The notes below the pieces were generated by a model. That model was given only the letters and a program-made list of their open reading frames with translations, did no database searches and was not told where the DNA came from. Position numbers and translations under genes: made by a program. From NCBI GenBank assembly GCA_024674815.1, contig GCA_024674815.1_4104.1: 64,000 nucleotides of DNA. One strand, given 5' to 3'. Every line of letters begins with the position of its first letter. Within the stretch, counting starts at the first letter, position 1. This document shows, piece by piece, positions 5,945-61,270 of this stretch. The DNA is from a phage.

Positions 5945-5975
5945 AACTGGCTGACCGAAGTCAACCACTTTTTCA
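5945..5975 (-). terminator. terminator hairpin with UUCG loop, TTGACT -35 embedded
   Basis: GGUUGAC-UUCG-GUCAGCC in minus transcript; TATTAT 17 nt downstream. Confidence 0.5.
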
Positions 5976-36113: not shown

Positions 36114-36482
36114 CTAACCTCGTTTACGTTTTTTAATTGTACTGTGCATCTTTTCGAAATAGGGAACCAAAACATATTGAACAGTTTGCCAGATAACCAT
36201 TAGATTATGCACTGCACCACCAAGGATACCAAACACTAGAACAATAATTGCCATAATAGGATCACCGTCTACCATACCCCATTTAAAGATATGTAAAATC
36301 CAAGCAATGACTAGACAAAATAAACTAAGCCAATACGTAATGAAAAATCCGGCTTGTAATTCATAATCATCAGCAATTTCATCGTATACCGTTTCTAAAA
36401 ATGATACACAAAAGAATTTACCAATTATAACCACAGTACTAATAAACAGCATAGCAGTTAAGATAATAAGAGCAATTTCCAT
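36114..36482 (-). CDS. small membrane protein, family member (122 aa)
   Basis: hydrophobic helices; basic C-tail KKRKRG. Confidence 0.55.
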   Translation of the reverse strand: MEIALIILTAMLFISTVVIIGKFFCVSFLETVYDEIADDYELQAGFFITYWLSLFCLVIAWILHIFKWGMVDGDPIMAIIVLVFGILGGAVHNLMVIWQTVQYVLVPYFEKMHSTIKKRKRG

Positions 36483-36796
36483 TACATCCCTCGTTTACGC
36501 TTTTGATTGCGTCTAAATTCTGATAGTCCACGGCTAATCGGCGGCATCAGACTACATAAAAAAGTAACAGTTGTTGGTAGTAACATCAAGTCAATCATTG
36601 CAGTGTTATCTGGTGGATCAAAAACCAAAAAATACACACAAGAAACACTAATAATGGTTGAACCGATAAAAGGAATACAAAATTCTTTTATCTGTTTTTC
36701 AACATAATCAAACATCTTGAGTACAAATAAAAATCCAACCCAACACATAATGAAATAGAATGAATACAACGTGTAAATCAATGTTACTATATCCAT
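36482..36796 (-). CDS. small membrane protein, family member (104 aa)
   Basis: start/stop overlap with neighbours. Confidence 0.55.
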   Translation of the reverse strand: MDIVTLIYTLYSFYFIMCWVGFLFVLKMFDYVEKQIKEFCIPFIGSTIISVSCVYFLVFDPPDNTAMIDLMLLPTTVTFLCSLMPPISRGLSEFRRNQKRKRGM

Positions 36797-37134
36797 TAGT
36801 ACCTCGCATCAGGAACTTTAGCACGTAACTTATGAACGACTGGGAACAACAACAAACTTACATATGCAATAGTTGAACCCCAATAGAATACTAATACAAT
36901 TGGTTCACCATTAGAACGGAAACCTCTACTAATCATTGAGTAGTGAATAATAGGCATAATCATCGCCATACCAAACCATGCGTGTAATTTTAATTGCAGC
37001 ATGTTATCAGCGATGAATACTGAAATTGGTCGTTTAAAGAACCACATCAGAAAGTAGAATCCAGCACTAATAATATAGTACATGGTACTAACTTTCATAT
37101 ACCACGGCAGTAAATCAATAAAGTACTCCATCAT
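36796..37134 (-). CDS. small membrane protein, family member (112 aa)
   Basis: hydrophobic helices. Confidence 0.55.
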   Translation of the reverse strand: MMEYFIDLLPWYMKVSTMYYIISAGFYFLMWFFKRPISVFIADNMLQLKLHAWFGMAMIMPIIHYSMISRGFRSNGEPIVLVFYWGSTIAYVSLLLFPVVHKLRAKVPDARY

Positions 37135-37478
37135 TCCTCCGGTATCTTATTTCGAAGTTCAATCATAACACAACAAATTTTAATGGTCAATATAAAAGTT
37201 AAACATATCATCCCAAGTGTGCCGTAAACTGCGGAAAAAGCTGGTAGTACCTTTCCTGTGAGTGTTGCTACAATACATGCAATCAATGTTGATGCAAACA
37301 ACGATTGATTAATGGCAGAATTTATAAAATCTTCACCATTACGTTTATAGAATTGTCGTTTAAAATACCATCCTAGAAACATAACTACCCAAAATGATAC
37401 ATAAGTTGTTAGAATAATCCCTGCAAGTGAATGTGCAACTGGACTACTCCTTAAAAACTCAAGATAAGCTTCAAACAT
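37131..37478 (-). CDS. small membrane protein, family member (115 aa)
   Basis: C-term RNKIPEE motif. Confidence 0.55.
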   Translation of the reverse strand: MFEAYLEFLRSSPVAHSLAGIILTTYVSFWVVMFLGWYFKRQFYKRNGEDFINSAINQSLFASTLIACIVATLTGKVLPAFSAVYGTLGMICLTFILTIKICCVMIELRNKIPEE

Positions 37479-37816
37479 TAGAAGTCTCCGCGAATTTTAT
37501 CTCTACCATGAATAATGAGATGGATTAAGTATACAACTAACCAAATGAACAACCCAAAGAATACAATATATTGTGAGATTGAGTTCAAATGAGGATTAGC
37601 ACAATAAATTAAGTGTGCCATAAGACCAACAATTGCAAACAAACCTTGAACTAGTGTGTAAAGAACTAGTGATGAATTCCTTACTGGATACAGTTTAAAA
37701 ACAATTTTCTTTTTAAAATACCACAGTACTACAACCAGTGCATGATAAAAGAAAAAACCAAACAGATAAATCAAAGTAATACTAATCATTGTATCTGAAT
37801 TAAAAAACTCAAGCAT
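37478..37816 (-). CDS. small membrane protein, family member (112 aa)
   Basis: first gene of 7-gene membrane array. Confidence 0.55.
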   Translation of the reverse strand: MLEFFNSDTMISITLIYLFGFFFYHALVVVLWYFKKKIVFKLYPVRNSSLVLYTLVQGLFAIVGLMAHLIYCANPHLNSISQYIVFFGLFIWLVVYLIHLIIHGRDKIRGDF

Positions 37817-38687: not shown

Positions 38688-38718
38688 CAAAAAGGGCCGA
38701 CCGAAGTCAACCCTTTTC
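38688..38718 (-). terminator. UUCG-loop terminator with embedded promoter -35
   Basis: GGGUUGAC-UUCG-GUCGGCCC + U-run; TTGAC in stem, TATAAT ~18 nt downstream. Confidence 0.5.
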
Positions 38719-40105: not shown

Positions 40106-40135
40106 CAAAAAGGGCTGACCGAAGTCAACCCTTTA
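40106..40135 (-). terminator. UUCG-loop terminator/promoter element
   Basis: conserved GGGCTGACCGAAGTCAACCC. Confidence 0.5.
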
Positions 40136-40836: not shown

Positions 40837-41352
40837 TTAATAATTATTCATTTCATCTTTGATTTGTTCTTCAATTTCGTCGAACATATCAGTACTAGAT
40901 TCGTTCTTACTACTTACGTTCTGCATATCTTTAACGTACTGTGGACATTCAACATCAGTAAACTTATACCACGTAGGCTTCATCTGGAGCTTCTCAATCA
41001 AACGATCACGAGACATTTTAATCTCTGACTCCGATGGTACATAGTCATTACAAAACTCAGCAGGGAAGCCGCTAATGTCGTTTACTTCAGTGTTTTGAAT
41101 CTTCATACCACGACGCAGACATTCGTTGACAATATCAATATGACGCTTCTGTAAGTACAGTAACTTGTCGTAGAAAAATGTTACATGACCTGAACCTAAC
41201 AGATAAGTACTGTTAATTTTGAAATCACGTACACGCTTACGTGCTTGAACGTGTTTTTGTACAGCACCAAATACACGTGGGAGTTCACGATATTCAGCCA
41301 TCAGATGTTGGTCAGCAAGTTCTTTAACGTGTACTAAGTTAATGCGTGTCAT
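40837..41352 (-). CDS. denV: endonuclease V, pyrimidine-dimer DNA glycosylase (T4 DenV homolog) with C-terminal extension
   Basis: N-terminal ~130 aa recalled as near-colinear with T4 DenV (MTRINL...[21 protein letters not shown]...). Confidence 0.8.
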
Positions 41353-43900: not shown

Positions 43901-44245
43901 CTATCGATTCGGCATATTCTTTCGTAGTCGCAAGAGAAATTCAACCACTGACCATGTTGTAATGAAGGCTATATAAGTTGCAAGGAATCCAGTAAGAATA
44001 AATGCAACCAGCGTACTACCATTTGGGGAATCAGTTTTAATGCCGATGACACCATCGGCTACAGTGAAACATGTAGCCATTAATGTGTAACCTACGTACA
44101 ACACAAAGAAAAACTCATTCTCCATTGAAGGATAGAAACGGTTAAACACTTTATAAAATTTAAAGTACAGTAGGATTATACCAACAAAGGCATAGAATGT
44201 AAACAGTGTTGTTATAATATATGAGATTAGGTTCAAATTATACAT
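43901..44245 (-). CDS. small membrane protein, family member (114 aa)
   Basis: C-term LRKNMPNR; same family as 35377-37816 array. Confidence 0.5.
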   Translation of the reverse strand: MYNLNLISYIITTLFTFYAFVGIILLYFKFYKVFNRFYPSMENEFFFVLYVGYTLMATCFTVADGVIGIKTDSPNGSTLVAFILTGFLATYIAFITTWSVVEFLLRLRKNMPNR

Positions 44246-44246
44246 A

Positions 44247-44588
44247 TCAACGCTCCGGTAGATTATCACGTAATGTTTTAATTCGATGATACATTTTCAT
44301 ACCAATATTACCAAAGATACCATATCCAAGTACTAAAATGTATGCAATAAGCATAGTAATAATTACTATAGTGCCAAAACTATAATGTACACTACTGATA
44401 CCCATTGTAGTTTCAACGATTATTTGAGAAACTGAAAGAATCAAAAGTACAACTACAATTGGATGATTTGGGTACATTCGGTTGAACAACGTTTTGTACT
44501 TAAAGAAGCACAGTACTCCACCGAATAAGAAGTACACAATGTAAATGCAAGCAACAGCATAGGCAAACATGTTAGTGTAATAAATCAT
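44247..44588 (-). CDS. small membrane protein, family member (113 aa)
   Basis: C-term LRDNLPER. Confidence 0.5.
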   Translation of the reverse strand: MIYYTNMFAYAVACIYIVYFLFGGVLCFFKYKTLFNRMYPNHPIVVVLLILSVSQIIVETTMGISSVHYSFGTIVIITMLIAYILVLGYGIFGNIGMKMYHRIKTLRDNLPER

Positions 44589-44597
44589 TACCAATCC

Positions 44598-44936
44598 TTA
44601 CTTTTCAGGGATATTAGAACGCCATATATCAATGCGATGAACTAGTCCAAAGAACAACCATACTGGAACGGCAGCTATCATAACAACAAATGAAAACCCA
44701 GTCAACACCGATACCAGATTTAATTCATCAGTACTATACCCACATATCAGTACTTCTAATATTCCCCACGTACATGCACAAAACATCAAGAATGAAATTG
44801 GGGCATCATAGTAGATACGTTCATATAAAGTAGTATATCGGAAGAATGCAATAATATAGCAAAACATATAATACACCCAAACCAAAGATACTACATAAAA
44901 TGATACTTTGTTTATTAATTCAAAATATTGTTCCAT
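44598..44936 (-). CDS. small membrane protein, family member (112 aa)
   Basis: C-term WRSNIPEK. Confidence 0.55.
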   Translation of the reverse strand: MEQYFELINKVSFYVVSLVWVYYMFCYIIAFFRYTTLYERIYYDAPISFLMFCACTWGILEVLICGYSTDELNLVSVLTGFSFVVMIAAVPVWLFFGLVHRIDIWRSNIPEK

Positions 44937-45281: not shown

Positions 45282-45923
45282 TCAATAAAAAACTGGATCT
45301 TCTTCAGTAATTGGTATTTCTCTACGCACATCACACGAAAGAGGATCAGTAATGAATACATTCCCATCTTTATCCATCATTACATTACTTGAATGAATGT
45401 CTGGTACAAAACGCCCGTGAAACTCTTTCATGATGTTAGCAGCGACCGTCGCAATAGCAATCTCTTCAGAATTACCACGCATATCATTCACTGAAGTAGC
45501 GTACTGACCAGCATGTGCATAAGAATATAAATCTCCAATTTTAGTACTAACAAAGTCATCATAATTATTTTTTTGTTTAATTATAGGATAGTACTTGTCC
45601 ATCTCATACCATCCAAAGTTTCCTTGTTCGTTGGCACTGTAGATCACTGGAAGAAACTTGGTTCCTGCGTTTTCAATGCAGTACTTTGCATAAGCACGAA
45701 AACCATCCCAGCGTGAAGTGGTTACTTTAAATGCACGTCCAGGATAGTTTTTATGTTCAACTACTACAGAGTACATCCCCATTCCAAGAAAAGTAAGTCC
45801 AGCAGCTTTAACTTGTGGAAAGATTACGCGTTCAGCATAAGGAATATCAAACTCCATCGCACAACGAGTTTTTGATGGACGCAAAATGTCAATTAAAGTT
45901 TTGAATATGTCTTGCTTAGTCAT
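45282..45923 (-). CDS. possible kinase-like fold protein (213 aa)
   Basis: DIHSSNVMMDKDGNVFITD resembles kinase/APH catalytic loop; ATG with GAGGA SD. Confidence 0.4.
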   Translation of the reverse strand: MTKQDIFKTLIDILRPSKTRCAMEFDIPYAERVIFPQVKAAGLTFLGMGMYSVVVEHKNYPGRAFKVTTSRWDGFRAYAKYCIENAGTKFLPVIYSANEQGNFGWYEMDKYYPIIKQKNNYDDFVSTKIGDLYSYAHAGQYATSVNDMRGNSEEIAIATVAANIMKEFHGRFVPDIHSSNVMMDKDGNVFITDPLSCDVRREIPITEEDPVFY

Positions 45924-45960: not shown

Positions 45961-45988
45961 AAAAAGGCTGACCGAAGTCAACCCTTTT
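45961..45988 (-). terminator. UUCG-loop terminator/promoter element
   Basis: GGCTGACCGAAGTCAACC. Confidence 0.5.
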
Positions 45989-46755: not shown

Positions 46756-47007
46756 TCACCGGAACTCTTTTTCTATTCCCATTACATCAGTCTTACGCTC
46801 AGATAGTATACCTGAAGTATATGAATCTTTGTTGTCAAACGCATTAAATCCAATAGTTCTGTCGGTGTCGTGTATTATTCCTTTTGTGTATGAGGTAGTA
46901 TAGAACTCCCCATTTCTGAAATCCTGCCTTGCTACGGAGCAATGATAATCTGCACCATAAGCAGTACTGGAAAATAATACAATTCCAAATATAATATATT
47001 TTTTCAT
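46756..47007 (-). CDS. secreted small protein (83 aa)
   Basis: internal ATG gives signal peptide MKKYIIFGIVLFSSTAYG; longer ORF overlaps terminator. Confidence 0.5.
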   Translation of the reverse strand: MKKYIIFGIVLFSSTAYGADYHCSVARQDFRNGEFYTTSYTKGIIHDTDRTIGFNAFDNKDSYTSGILSERKTDVMGIEKEFR

Positions 47008-47043
47008 TGTAATCCCTCTTCTTAATTCCTCTTTTGTATTTAC

Positions 47044-47073
47044 AAAAAAAGGCTGACCGAAGTCAACCTTTTG
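47044..47073 (-). terminator. UUCG-loop terminator
   Basis: GGCTGACCGAAGTCAACC. Confidence 0.5.
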
Positions 47074-47078
47074 TTTTA

Positions 47079-48356
47079 TCATTTACCGTATTTGCTCATG
47101 ATGTCCTTTTCCCAAGGAGTTACATTTCCATTTTCGTAATCACGGAAAGAGTCATCAAGTGTAGTCAATGCATAATCATATGCCTCACCGGATTCAACAT
47201 CAATATCAACAGCACCATTCACTACATCAGTCCACGCTTTTTGTAGTTTACGAGCGTTGTTACCAACTTTATCTTTAATCCAACTAAGATTTCGGTTTAT
47301 ACTCTTCTTATCAGCACCAGCTTTTTCACCAACATCTGCAACCCATTGCATTAATTTCTGTAGTTCGTTATGGGATTTTTCAGTCATTTGGCGGTCTTGT
47401 GACAGTTCAGCTTCCATGTCATCAATTTCTTCGTCTGAATGAACATCGTTCTGTTCTACTGCACCTTCTTCATCATCACGCATCAGATAACCATCTCGTG
47501 TAACCTTCTCACCATGATCAGCTTCATACTTTTTCATAGTATTGAATGCAGCATCCATTGCAGTTACAAAACGACTCTTTTCACCTTGTACATAAGATTT
47601 AAGTGCATCGTTAACTGCATCAGATACTAATTTAATCTTATCGTCTTTACCTTCCAGACGGTTTTCTAACTTAGCTAGTACATTCTTAACTTTTTGAGCA
47701 TTAGCACGGTCTTCTTTACCAATACTATCAAATGTTTTAAGTACGCTTTCAAGACTTACTTCCTCTTGTGCAGGCACATCACCTTGTTGCGTACCTTCAA
47801 GTGCACGCATTATAGTACTGAATACTTCAGTTGGTTCAGTACTGGTATTTCCACTCATTGCATCAAGCACAGCTTGTGCTTTGACTTTTAATTCTTCTTT
47901 AGGTACAGATTGCAATTCTTTCACAATACCTTGGATAAGTTGTGGTTTATTAGCAAAAATCTTACCTAACTTATCCGACAGTTCTTTGACAGGGTTAACC
48001 GCCTTTGGTGCTTCTTGTTTTGGTTCTTCTTTAGCAGGAGCAGATTTTTCTTTTTCTTCACGTTCCATATCAGCTAGGCGTTGTTTTTGTGTAGCATTAA
48101 GAAGTCCCAATGAATTAACATAACGTAGCTTTTCTAGCTCAGTCATGTTCTCAGTACTCTTAACTTCACCTGCTTCTGCGTTTGCTTTACCAGCTAGACC
48201 AGTTCCTTGGTTACGTGATCCACGTGAACCTTGACCTGCTTGATAACTATTTGGACGGCGGTTGCGTTCACTCCATTTATCAGAGTGACCAGCCATGTTA
48301 CCACCATTTTTATCAGTAAAATTACTTGGCATTTGATTTCTCTCCATAGATTTCAT
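47079..48356 (-). CDS. large Lys/Glu-rich protein with LxSLGLL motif (425 aa), late-expressed
   Basis: TATAAATA late-type promoter upstream; alternative starts at M4/M9. Confidence 0.55.
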   Translation of the reverse strand: MKSMERNQMPSNFTDKNGGNMAGHSDKWSERNRRPNSYQAGQGSRGSRNQGTGLAGKANAEAGEVKSTENMTELEKLRYVNSLGLLNATQKQRLADMEREEKEKSAPAKEEPKQEAPKAVNPVKELSDKLGKIFANKPQLIQGIVKELQSVPKEELKVKAQAVLDAMSGNTSTEPTEVFSTIMRALEGTQQGDVPAQEEVSLESVLKTFDSIGKEDRANAQKVKNVLAKLENRLEGKDDKIKLVSDAVNDALKSYVQGEKSRFVTAMDAAFNTMKKYEADHGEKVTRDGYLMRDDEEGAVEQNDVHSDEEIDDMEAELSQDRQMTEKSHNELQKLMQWVADVGEKAGADKKSINRNLSWIKDKVGNNARKLQKAWTDVVNGAVDIDVESGEAYDYALTTLDDSFRDYENGNVTPWEKDIMSKYGK

Positions 48357-48372
48357 TTTTTCTCTATGTCTA

Positions 48373-48380
48373 TATTTATA
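48373..48380 (-). promoter_or_regulatory. T4-type late promoter TATAAATA
   Basis: exact TATAAATA on minus strand ~17 nt upstream of ATG. Confidence 0.45.
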
Positions 48381-48387
48381 GTATAAA

Positions 48388-48418
48388 GAAAAGGCTGACC
48401 GAAGTCAACCTTATTTTG
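48388..48418 (-). terminator. UUCG-loop terminator
   Basis: GGCTGACCGAAGTCAACC. Confidence 0.5.
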
Positions 48419-48570
48419 TTACTTAGATTGTTCTTGTGCAGGTGGATTTACTTTTTGATCCACTACATAGAATACACCACCAACCAGTACTGCGGCGATG
48501 AGTGCAGCAACTACAAATTTCAAACCTTGCATATATGATACCTCAGTTATATTGAGAATTTATGATACAA

Positions 48571-48600
48571 CAAAGGGCTGACCTTAGTCAACCCCTTTTT
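48571..48600 (-). terminator. terminator hairpin (variant loop)
   Basis: GGGCTGACCttaGTCAACCCC. Confidence 0.45.
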
Positions 48601-48601
48601 A

Positions 48602-48985
48602 TTACTTCTTGAACTTATGTTTTTCACTTTCGATTGCATTCACGATTTCATCATGAATTTTACGAAGATTGTGAGTTTTCTTTAGAGATTCATGTAATGC
48701 ACGGAATGCAGAGTGTACAGTTGCTTTAAAGTGCTCTTTAGGAGTTACTTTAAGTTTCTCGATAATATCACGTACATAGATTGGGTGATCCTCAAACACA
48801 CGATTAAGCTCATGACCTAGTGATTCTAGGCTAAATGCTTTTTCACGGGATGGACGATCATGTGCAAGACTTTGGTCTGGTTTTAGAAGACCTAGTGAAT
48901 CTAGATACTTGTGCTTATGTGCATTGTCTAGACCAGAAATATCAACATCATGTGATGGATCTTTCTTATTCCATTTATCAACCAT
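48602..48985 (-). CDS. hypothetical protein with LDSLGLL motif (127 aa), late-expressed
   Basis: shares YxxSLGLL motif with 47079-48356; TATAAATA upstream. Confidence 0.55.
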   Translation of the reverse strand: MVDKWNKKDPSHDVDISGLDNAHKHKYLDSLGLLKPDQSLAHDRPSREKAFSLESLGHELNRVFEDHPIYVRDIIEKLKVTPKEHFKATVHSAFRALHESLKKTHNLRKIHDEIVNAIESEKHKFKK

Positions 48986-49021
48986 TTTTATAACTCCTAT
49001 AAGAGATAAATTTTACTATAA

Positions 49022-49029
49022 TATTTATA
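49022..49029 (-). promoter_or_regulatory. T4-type late promoter TATAAATA
   Basis: exact TATAAATA on minus strand, AGGAG SD before ATG. Confidence 0.45.
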
Positions 49030-49100
49030 GTTCCGTTGTCATTTATATCGAATGACATAAAACATTATATCATAATAAGAATGGTTGTCCCAAAGTTAAA

Positions 49101-51812: not shown

Positions 51813-51840
51813 AAAAAAGGCTGACCGAAGTCAACCTTTG
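51813..51840 (-). terminator. UUCG-loop terminator/promoter element
   Basis: GGCTGACCGAAGTCAACC. Confidence 0.5.
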
Positions 51841-60304: not shown

Positions 60305-61270
60305 TTAGAAATCTTCGTATTCGTACCCTTTTGCAAGTACTAACTTCTTAAGCTTTTGCATAGCTTCACTGTACTTTCGATGTATTGATGAACGGGATTT
60401 AACATATTTTCCATTATCATCAACAAAACCATTATCAGCAATCTCACGAAGCGTTTCAGGTTCATATTCACCTAGACCATGAACACGCTGGATAATCTCA
60501 CGTTCTTTAGTACTCAATTCGTTGGTCAGTTCATTGATAGCATAACGCAAAGGTGCACGGATACTATCAACATTGAGGTTAAAATCAGAAGCAGGTGAAT
60601 GAATAATGTCACCTAATGTACCATCTGTAACACCGTCTAATGGTGCATCCAGCGAAGTGTATTCGCTTTGAAATAACAAACAATTATTAACATGCTGAAT
60701 CTCAATCCCAGTACCCTCTGAGATTATTTCAGGAGTTGGGCGAACACCATGTTTACGCATATATTCCTGACAGAATCTTTTTACTTTGATCTTATGAACA
60801 CTCATATAACGTGGGAAGTGTACCATATAGTTAGCGTCAGAACTTTCGTTATAGACTGTCATGTAAATACTAGAAGAAGCATAGGTAATGAACTTAACAT
60901 TCTTATTAAGATCAAAGGTTTTTAGTGCTCTCATGAACCCCTCAACACCATATGAAATCTTATCTTCAAATGGGATATAACAAGTACATTTACTTGCTAC
61001 ATCAATAATCAGTCCATAATTGTAACGAACTAACAGTTCAGTGTTTTTCTTTACATTGATACCAGCTTGAATATCACGAATTAGATCTTCATTGGAAACA
61101 TTTGGTGGTCGCTTAAGTGTAATATTATATTTGAAACTGCTTTGTACTTTACCTTCATTATCATCTTTATCTTCAACGAAATCTAAGGCTTCTAGTGTGT
61201 TGACTTCTTCATTAGCAAAACATTCATCCAGAACTTCTTCGGCAATTGTATTTAAATCAAGCTTTTTCAC
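60305..61270 (-). CDS. sigma-70 family RNA polymerase sigma factor (321 aa)
   Basis: region 2 (FITYAS...VHFPRYM), 3 (GVRPTPEI), 4 (EREIIQRVHGL...ETLREIA); GTG start with AGGAGA SD. Confidence 0.65.
   Translation of the reverse strand: MKKLDLNTIAEEVLDECFANEEVNTLEALDFVEDKDDNEGKVQSSFKYNITLKRPPNVSNEDLIRDIQAGINVKKNTELLVRYNYGLIIDVASKCTCYIPFEDKISYGVEGFMRALKTFDLNKNVKFITYASSSIYMTVYNESSDANYMVHFPRYMSVHKIKVKRFCQEYMRKHGVRPTPEIISEGTGIEIQHVNNCLLFQSEYTSLDAPLDGVTDGTLGDIIHSPASDFNLNVDSIRAPLRYAINELTNELSTKEREIIQRVHGLGEYEPETLREIADNGFVDDNGKYVKSRSSIHRKYSEAMQKLKKLVLAKGYEYEDF

Follow-up and report, generated by a model that had tools for sequence, protein, structure and literature searches.

Two minus-strand genes lying close together in a 64,000-nucleotide stretch of phage DNA (NCBI GenBank assembly GCA_024674815.1, contig GCA_024674815.1_4104.1; the whole of this stretch is referred to below as the window) are the subject of this analysis. 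We call the longer of the two gene A (47079-48332) and the shorter gene B (48602-48985). They are very probably paralogues, transcribed separately as late genes of an Asteriusvirus, with products that are carried in the phage particle and belong to a protein family found only in Rak2-like phages. A first-pass annotation made from the DNA letters had singled out the pair as related proteins, driven by T4-type late promoters beside the gene denV, and had suggested from the order of genes in T4 that both might be packaged internal head proteins. Here we set out how far that picture holds, and weigh where in the particle the two proteins are likely to reside.

Late promoters and presence in virions

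Judged by nucleotide identity, the source of the window is an Asteriusvirus, a Rak2-like jumbo myovirus (~350-370 kb) infecting E. coli, and not a T4-like phage. Over the 3-kb region of interest, identity is 100% with Escherichia phage JP4 and 99.4-99.9% with E9.1, phAPEC6, SP27 and ELP-22; over the surrounding 24-kb stretch it is 99.3% with E9.1 and 98.6% with phAPEC6. With the window ~99% identical to Asteriusvirus genomes, the T4-type genome implied by the first-pass annotation falls away, and its T4 frame is therefore valid by analogy only. Genes A and B are the same genes as gp035c and gp037c of phAPEC6 and gp201 and gp199 of 121Q, with the same promoters and terminators, and CBB_38 of Pectobacterium phage CBB is an orthologue.

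Gene A encodes 417 amino acids (aa; 46.39 kDa, isoelectric point (pI) 5.1) and its product is 99.8% identical to phAPEC6 gp035c. The gene had been drawn as reaching to 48356, a start that we would move to 48332 as the most likely position because a GGAGAG Shine-Dalgarno sequence stands before it (48340-48345), all homologues begin MP, and the resulting 46.39 kDa equals the published mass of gp035c. The same start is annotated for the counterparts in JP4, phAPEC6 and 121Q; the alternative ATG at 48356 lies 16 nt from the promoter and lacks a Shine-Dalgarno sequence. Gene B encodes 127 aa (pI 9.05) behind the Shine-Dalgarno sequence AGGAG (48994-48998, minus strand), and its product is 100% identical to phAPEC6 gp037c and 121Q gp199, its 14.83 kDa being the published mass of gp037c. 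Each gene thus has its own Shine-Dalgarno sequence, and each also has a stereotyped intrinsic terminator with a UUCG loop.

Directly upstream of each gene, on the minus strand, stands an exact copy of the T4 late-promoter consensus TATAAATA, just where it had first been noticed: at 48373-48380 for gene A, 48 nt upstream of the ATG at 48332, and at 49022-49029 for gene B, the first base of the motif being 44 nt upstream of the A of the ATG. Both elements are the same in 121Q and phAPEC6, that of gene B in position as well as in sequence. These two are the only copies in the window, against 13.8 +/- 3.7 expected from shuffled sequence, and the heptamer ATAAATA likewise occurs only twice, at the same two sites, against 44 +/- 6.8 expected. 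Elsewhere in the window the motif is strongly avoided, its two copies standing directly 5' of A and B.

A genome-wide count was made on the 350 kb of the phAPEC6 genome that was assembled, with expectations taken from a first-order Markov model. Exact copies of TATAAATA number 15 against ~67 expected, and copies of ATAAATA 54 against ~233. Seven of the 15 exact sites are followed at 42-55 nt by a gene for a protein that mass spectrometry (MS) has verified in virions, namely gp035c, gp037c, gp158c, gp225c (the major capsid protein), gp226c (the scaffold), gp238 and gp323c; a further four stand in front of gp232, gp234 (the endonuclease VII homologue), gp242 (baseplate cluster) and gp214c; one is 195 nt upstream of MS-verified gp347, and the remaining three are intragenic. 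When the motif is relaxed to N[ACT]TAAATA it is found no more than 110 nt upstream of 33 of the 61 MS-verified phAPEC6 genes, mostly at -34 to -58. Furthermore, the element is retained at -39 to -48 before the orthologues of K64-1, Hallingskeid, Munch_040 and RaK2 despite their diverged flanks, and CTAAATA replaces ATAAATA before those of CBB, GAP32, BF, Yen9-04 and XbC2. The late sigma factor of phAPEC6 is, by annotation, gp237c. In CBB the published genome analysis reported a gp55-like sigma factor, CBB_244, and, ahead of structural genes in both CBB and GAP32, the motif ATAAATA as found by MEME.

All of this resembles the gp55-dependent promoters of T4-type phages: the same octamer at a similar distance from the start codon, strong avoidance elsewhere, association with structural genes and a gp55-like sigma factor. 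It differs from T4 in that the CBB authors found no homologues of gp33 or gp45, and in that the Rak2-like consensus, N[ACT]TAAATA, is the looser of the two. On this model TATAAATA would be read by the host RNA polymerase together with the phage's gp55-like sigma factor, with no need of a -35 element. The literature searched yielded no transcript mapping or transcriptome of any Asteriusvirus, and in it the start and timing of transcription are unmapped for Rak2-like phages. At the level of sequence, the reading of both elements as T4-type late promoters is well supported by the avoidance of the motif, by the seven sites at virion genes and by the gp55-like sigma factor, and the first-pass annotation was in this respect sound.

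Packaging of the two proteins, for which virion proteomics had been proposed as the check, is borne out by published MS. Table 1 of the phAPEC6 paper, which lists 62 virion-associated proteins identified by electrospray ionisation tandem mass spectrometry (ESI-MS/MS), includes both gp035c (46.39 kDa, 8 unique peptides, 28.8% coverage) and gp037c (14.83 kDa, 5 peptides, 48% coverage), and Table 4 of the CBB paper includes CBB_38, the single orthologue in that phage, with 9 peptides and 56.6% coverage. In 121Q, PBECO4, UB and others both genes are annotated as structural. That A and B are late and packaged is accordingly supported, and was already known from GenBank annotation and from the phAPEC6 and CBB papers.

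A protein family of Rak2-like phages

The relatedness of the two products, first suspected from a shared Y(V/L)(N/D)SLGLL motif, is confirmed, and the two are true paralogues: A and B align by BLASTP with E=4e-8 (24% identity over 119 aa), both match the families phrog_16530 and phrog_20398, and the motif reads YVNSLGLL in A and YLDSLGLL in B. Against these profiles A scores E=1.8e-179 with phrog_20398 and E=5.6e-38 with phrog_16530, and B scores E=3.6e-56 with phrog_16530. Profile match and domain order (motif, linker, four-helix bundle) place both in the phrog_16530/phrog_20398 family, labelled 'virion structural protein', for which 71 and 13 clusters were found in a set of 5.8 billion proteins. 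Genome matches to A and B are confined to Rak2-like phages. When 1.84 billion proteins were searched exhaustively by profile, only 35 representatives came back, those inspected being members of the family and none of known function. Neither Pfam, NCBIfam nor PDB profile searches gave anything specific as to function by domain or fold, and a Foldseek search of the AlphaFold2 (AF2) model of A against BFVD and PDB recovered family members only.

The core of the family consists of K-L-K-Y-F-x-S-L-G-L-L on a short helix, a linker of variable length rich in Pro, Glu, Lys and Ala, and a four-helix domain of ~70 aa; the motif segment, KLKYFNSLGLL, is in all likelihood amphipathic. Most members, A included, carry in addition a conserved, basic and disordered N-terminal arm of ~56 aa, and the long forms end in an acidic (pI 4.7), all-helical extension built from interchangeable cassettes. 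In A the arm occupies residues 1-56 (48165-48332, minus strand; pI 10), is rich in Gly, Ser, Arg, Asn and Gln, is predicted to be disordered and is highly conserved, residues H16, G35, R40, N41, Q42, T44, G45 and G48 being invariant. The YVNSLGLL motif follows at residues 71-78 (48099-48122), overlapping a helix at residues 65-74, and then the conserved four-helix domain at residues 113-179 (47796-47996; NPVKELSDKLGKIF...EVFSTIMRALEG), which is common to B and to all short forms. The mosaic extension takes up residues 181-417 (47082-47792).

Gene B is a short paralogue without the Gly/Ser/Arg-rich arm, comprising the motif helix and the four-helix bundle. Its AF2 model (predicted local distance difference test score 69.5) has helices at residues 21-30, 53-63, 68-79, 86-103 and 107-125, and its YLDSLGLL motif spans residues 27-34 (48884-48907, minus strand), where K24, Y27, L31 and G32 are invariant across the family. 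Alignment makes it very probable that B is a short form left by deletion of the arm, with the family member P0084 as an intermediate; more distant short forms begin at the motif itself. On the metagenome contig SRR23924999_345976 (L023, 524-2191), a long form of 412 aa (P0049) has directly behind it a short form of 127 aa (P0105), beginning at the KYYNKLGLL motif. The pairing of a long with a short form is thus seen again in a different lineage, with the order reversed relative to the window.

The extension of A is also where closely related phages part company. Codons ~90-417 (window 47000-48067) form a sharp island of divergence from 121Q and G17, with 68-88% nucleotide identity and an indel of ~280 nt, in the midst of 9 kb of flanking sequence that is otherwise 99-100% identical. 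The two phages carry another C-terminal cassette, which brings their alleles to 495-506 aa against 417 aa here, with nothing else essential differing; among Asteriusvirus isolates alleles of A range from 417 to 606 aa. Within the island dS (synonymous divergence) is ~0.8 and dN/dS (the ratio of non-synonymous to synonymous divergence) ~0.2, which speaks for old alleles shuffled by recombination and not for rapid recent change.

Two other readings of these proteins were rejected. The GenBank label of phAPEC6 gp035c, SMC or 'chromosome segregation protein', has no domain support: A, tested for the ATPase head domains of SMC, Rad50 or SbcC, had no Pfam match at E<=0.1, no NCBIfam match above noise and no PDB profile match, and the protein has no Walker motifs, being wholly helical or disordered. 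Nor does the SLGLL motif serve as a targeting signal common to virion proteins, as among open reading frames (ORFs) of at least 50 aa in the phAPEC6 genome no other plausible gene than these two has it, and the mature CBB_38 protein keeps it.

Terminators and surrounding genes

The hairpin GGTTGAC-TTCG-GTCAGCC, with its UUCG loop and T-run, occurs eight times in the window, each time on the minus strand, where no copy is expected (5949-5966, 38695-38712, 40113-40130, 45966-45983, 47051-47068, 48393-48410, 48576-48593 and 51819-51836). Gene B, gene A and a 37-aa ORF between them are each bracketed by it. The terminator hairpin directly upstream of the promoter of A (48391-48412) and that 3' of A (47049-47070) both read AAGGTTGAC-TTCG-GTCAGCCTT, the latter followed by a T-run (T7), and the hairpin 3' of B (48575-48594) is written GGGTTGAC-TAAG-GTCAGCCC; in G17 terminators are annotated at the last two of these positions. 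The phAPEC6 genome likewise holds eight copies in 350 kb, seven of them between 18.7 and 32.2 kb, and the hairpin also stands 3' of the orthologous gene in RaK2, K64-1, BF, Yen9-04, XbC2 and Munch.

In seven of the eight hairpins of the window the 5' arm supplies TTGACT, followed after 17-18 nt by TATAAT, TATGAT, TATCAT, TATACT or TATTAT, an arrangement that looks like a combined cassette of intrinsic terminator and putative sigma-70-type promoter. The hairpin after B is one such case, with TTGACT in the hairpin, then 18 nt, then TATCAT, and it may double as a promoter for the 37-aa ORF (48419-48532, minus strand). This ORF, equivalent to 121Q gp200 and phAPEC6 gp036c, encodes one hydrophobic helix (MQGLKFVVAALIAAVLVGGVFYVV...); it is conserved, is unrelated to A or B, has a terminator on each side and finds no match in Pfam. 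Before gene A, TTGACT-17-TATACT overlaps the late promoter (TATACT at 48380-48385), and before gene B stands TTGGGA-18-TG-TATAAT (TATAAT at 49064-49069). With these sigma-70-like elements in front of them, the two genes may not be exclusively late.

A related arrangement was observed in CBB (L005, 2380-2500), GAP32 (L007), BF (L008), Yen9-04 (L009) and XbC2 (L014), where the ~120 nt upstream of the orthologue contain TTGACA-N18-TATAAT with CTAAATA in the spacer. The element is nested there in a long inverted repeat, AATCCCCTAA...TTAGGGGATT, with a T-run, and amounts to a promoter housed in the loop of a hairpin that resembles a terminator. The gene for a virion protein may therefore be read both early and late in these five phages.

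Genes A and B are islands of late promoters amid a long block of small early-type genes. A protein kinase like T7 gp0.7 (45282-45923, minus strand; phrog_15752, E=3e-97) is encoded 1.1 kb downstream of gene A, and an RpoD-like protein of the sigma-70 family (60305-61270, minus strand; Pfam regions 2, 3 and 4) 11 kb upstream, and this puts the late genes within a region of host-takeover type. As context, denV, encoding a pyrimidine-dimer glycosylase, lies at 40837-41352 on the same strand (Pfam PF03013 Pyr_excise, E=5.9e-15; annotated in JP4 and phAPEC6). It had been taken to adjoin the two genes, and is in fact 5.7 kb, or ~14 ORFs, downstream. Elsewhere in the block, at 43901-44936 and 36114-37816 (minus strand), consecutive ORFs of ~104-122 aa have similar hydrophobic sequences, such as ...FKYKTLFNRMYP... 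and ...FRYTTLYERIYY..., and look like tandem paralogues encoding small putative membrane proteins.

Location in the particle

We tentatively place the products of A and B inside the head, at somewhat short of an even chance: loaded into the prohead, lying on the DNA by way of the basic arm, forming part of the inner body and perhaps being ejected with the genome. An internal location is the likeliest guess because these phages have an inner body to which no protein has been assigned. Bubblegrams of 121Q and phAPEC6 revealed a phiKZ-like inner body of 91 x 18 nm, for whose make-up the authors guessed at RCC1-like proteins. The same location is favoured by the position of the genes as late-promoter islands in an early-type block, as are T4 ipIII and ipII upstream of denV; by the conserved basic arm and the exact consensus promoter common to the capsid and scaffold genes; and by the extension of A, a hotspot of allelic cassettes such as would be expected of a host-facing effector. 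Both proteins would then enter the prohead by way of the conserved motif and the bundle, with no targeting peptide removed, and would end up next to the packaged DNA, touching it with the basic arm, as part of the radiation-sensitive inner body of 121Q and phAPEC6. They might also be ejected along with the DNA, and the variable extension would then act in the host. A further step, that A, B and their Rak2-like orthologues constitute a third independent internal-protein system, unrelated to those of T4 or phiKZ, in which the cassette domain of A is a delivered anti-defence effector, we regard as doubtful.

The likeness to T4 internal proteins is one of circumstance. Like ipII and ipIII, A and B encode virion proteins from outside the head cluster, as islands of late transcription in an early region, upstream of denV and on the same strand, with each of the neighbouring genes a separate unit, and B resembles those proteins in being small and basic. 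Unlike them, A is large and acidic, and denV, adjacent to the T4 genes, is at a distance here. A similar likeness exists to the inner-body proteins of phiKZ (gp89, gp90, gp93, gp95, gp97 and gp162), which are abundant virion proteins of unknown fold encoded by paralogous, clustered genes, and which come, as A and B do, from jumbo phages with an inner body visible in bubblegrams (121Q and phAPEC6). The phiKZ proteins differ in that they are reported to be extensively processed by the head protease, a process of which the A/B family gives no sign.

Several observations weigh against an internal location, and the most detailed of these concern kinship and processing. Alignment of A and B with T4 IPII and IPIII by hhalign gave probabilities of 0.1-0.3%, indicating no homology, and the PHROG families differ (phrog_5341 for IPIII and phrog_7857 for IPII; phrog_20398 for A and phrog_16530 for B). 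Homology to IPII and IPIII is rejected on both counts. Of the original suggestion of packaged proteins like those of T4, then, the packaging stands and the sequence relationship does not. The phAPEC6 authors, moreover, found no phAPEC6 protein similar to the inner-body proteins of phiKZ.

The hallmark of a T4 internal protein is an N-terminal targeting peptide ending in L/I-x-E, which is removed by a prohead protease of the gp21 type. No MKTYQEFIAE-like targeting peptide is present in A or B, whose N-termini read MPSNFTDK... and MVDKWNKK.... There are three [LIV]xE sites in A, the first at residues 115-117, and the first in B is at residues 63-65; CBB_38 has no Glu at all in its first 65 residues. 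No L/I-x-E or S/A/G-x-E site is conserved across the family alignments, and sites of phiKZ type such as AGE and SLE do exist but are not conserved either. The protease itself appears to be T4-like in specificity, as the capsid protein of the phage has LTE/S (the slash marking the cut) at residues 41-43, which fits the reported processing from 42.2 to 37 kDa; its scaffold protein has 26 [LIV]xE sites.

The peptides reported for CBB bear directly on cleavage. In CBB_38 they span residues 50-62 and 74-172, unbroken at motif or linker, and include the tryptic peptides LNTMPSQGVDTSK, SLGLMPGAEPTPEPEVQPEPKPER and NKVQALTQDLQK and onward to the C-terminus. Since they run across the SLGL motif, across the linker and across the position that aligns with VKE/L of A, they exclude prohead-protease cleavage at these places in CBB, and the processing that is the hallmark of T4 and phiKZ internal proteins is absent there. 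For residues 1-49 no peptide was reported from a search restricted to fully tryptic peptides, of which this segment offers three suitable ones, all short and hydrophilic; the gap may reflect trimming or modification of the arm, or simply poor detection. Prohead-protease cleavage, which had been put forward as a test of the internal-protein idea, is thus not borne out, and as a T4-type internal protein A or B is not established: the analogy fails the tests of membership that sequence can offer.

Other considerations point the same way. A is acidic overall, and B, which has no basic arm, is detected in virions nonetheless. The external capsid proteins of phAPEC6, a cement network and fibres at the hexamer centres, have no gene assigned to them and are equally open candidates. 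The sigma-70-like elements that overlap or precede both late promoters mean that the genes may not be strictly late, and the MS list of phAPEC6 virions also contains non-structural proteins (thymidylate synthase, UvsX and the ssDNA-binding protein), which makes MS detection alone weak evidence of a structural role. The literature searched yielded no localisation data or high-resolution structure for any Asteriusvirus; a 2026 review mentions no data on Rak2-like phages, and gp275 goes unmentioned in the text of the RaK2 paper.

Were the proteins on the outside of the capsid instead, which we think rather unlikely, motif and bundle would sit on the outer surface, forming either the cement network or the base of the fibre at the hexamer centre, and the linker and acidic extension of A would project outward in the 'hair' of the capsid. 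Cryo-electron microscopy of phAPEC6 indeed shows a decoration protein at the copy number of the capsid protein and one fibre per hexamer centre, neither assigned to a gene. Flexible Pro-rich linkers and a recombining distal domain are typical of virion parts exposed to the host or the environment; a promoter of the class used for the capsid protein suits proteins present in many copies, and the want of proteolytic processing is as expected of proteins added from outside. Yet a conserved basic arm rich in Gly, Ser and Arg would be unusual in a surface protein, the short forms in CBB, GAP32 and BF, at 127-175 aa, would be unable to build fibres, and the head module is far from the two genes, which have early-type neighbours. 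Components of the tail, the neck or the whiskers, such as the fibres that ring the sheath, are an improbable identity for A and B. Tail whiskers and collar or tail decoration proteins await assignment in phAPEC6 and CBB, and A has weak, sub-threshold profile matches to helical proteins of tail or tape-measure type, phrog_1204 (E=0.0027) and RcGTA_tape (E=0.063), but these fall far below the cut-off and reflect a helical, charged composition; the genes, furthermore, are outside the tail and baseplate clusters, and a whisker role is disfavoured by the occurrence of the family in RaK2 and GAP32, phages not described as having whiskers.

It is more improbable still that A and B are simply abundant intracellular proteins, made late or both early and late, that co-purify with particles and have earned the label 'virion structural protein' as an artefact. 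The clearly non-structural proteins of the phAPEC6 list, the sigma-70-like promoters in front of A and B, and the near-consensus TTGACA-N18-TATAAT before the orthologue of CBB, GAP32, BF and Yen9-04, which suggests expression that is not late, would all suit such an account. Set against them are the independent, high-coverage detection in two phage genera, in particles taken from caesium chloride gradients, the detection of both paralogues, and the exact-consensus late promoter that the two share with the capsid and scaffold genes.

Two further observations concern other candidates for the interior of the head. The plus strand of the window carries at 20597-33467 a tandem array of ~11 RCC1-repeat paralogues of ~370-420 aa (Pfam RCC1_2), whose upstream regions share ATTAAATA-tag-TATAAT. 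They correspond to gp001-gp010 of phAPEC6, several of which were detected by MS in virions and which are the phAPEC6 authors' candidates for the inner body. The head module of phAPEC6 (L017, 41122-45063; 141122-145063 of the record) follows the T4 order of portal, two small genes, protease, scaffold and capsid. Another phAPEC6 protein, gp228c (pI 4.06), likewise detected by MS in virions, begins MANLKLLQE/A, a T4-like signature of targeting and cleavage. By the criterion of such a signature, its N-terminus makes gp228c a better candidate than A or B for a processed internal core protein.

Abundant, late and encoded outside the head module, the products of A and B are made reasonable candidates for the composition of the inner body by the presence of such a body in 121Q and phAPEC6. 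To our knowledge, an inner body has been reported in no other phage beyond the phiKZ group. If the internal location is true, the localised allelic variation in A would mark its likely host-interaction domain, and inner bodies would have arisen independently from unrelated proteins, without protease-dependent targeting.

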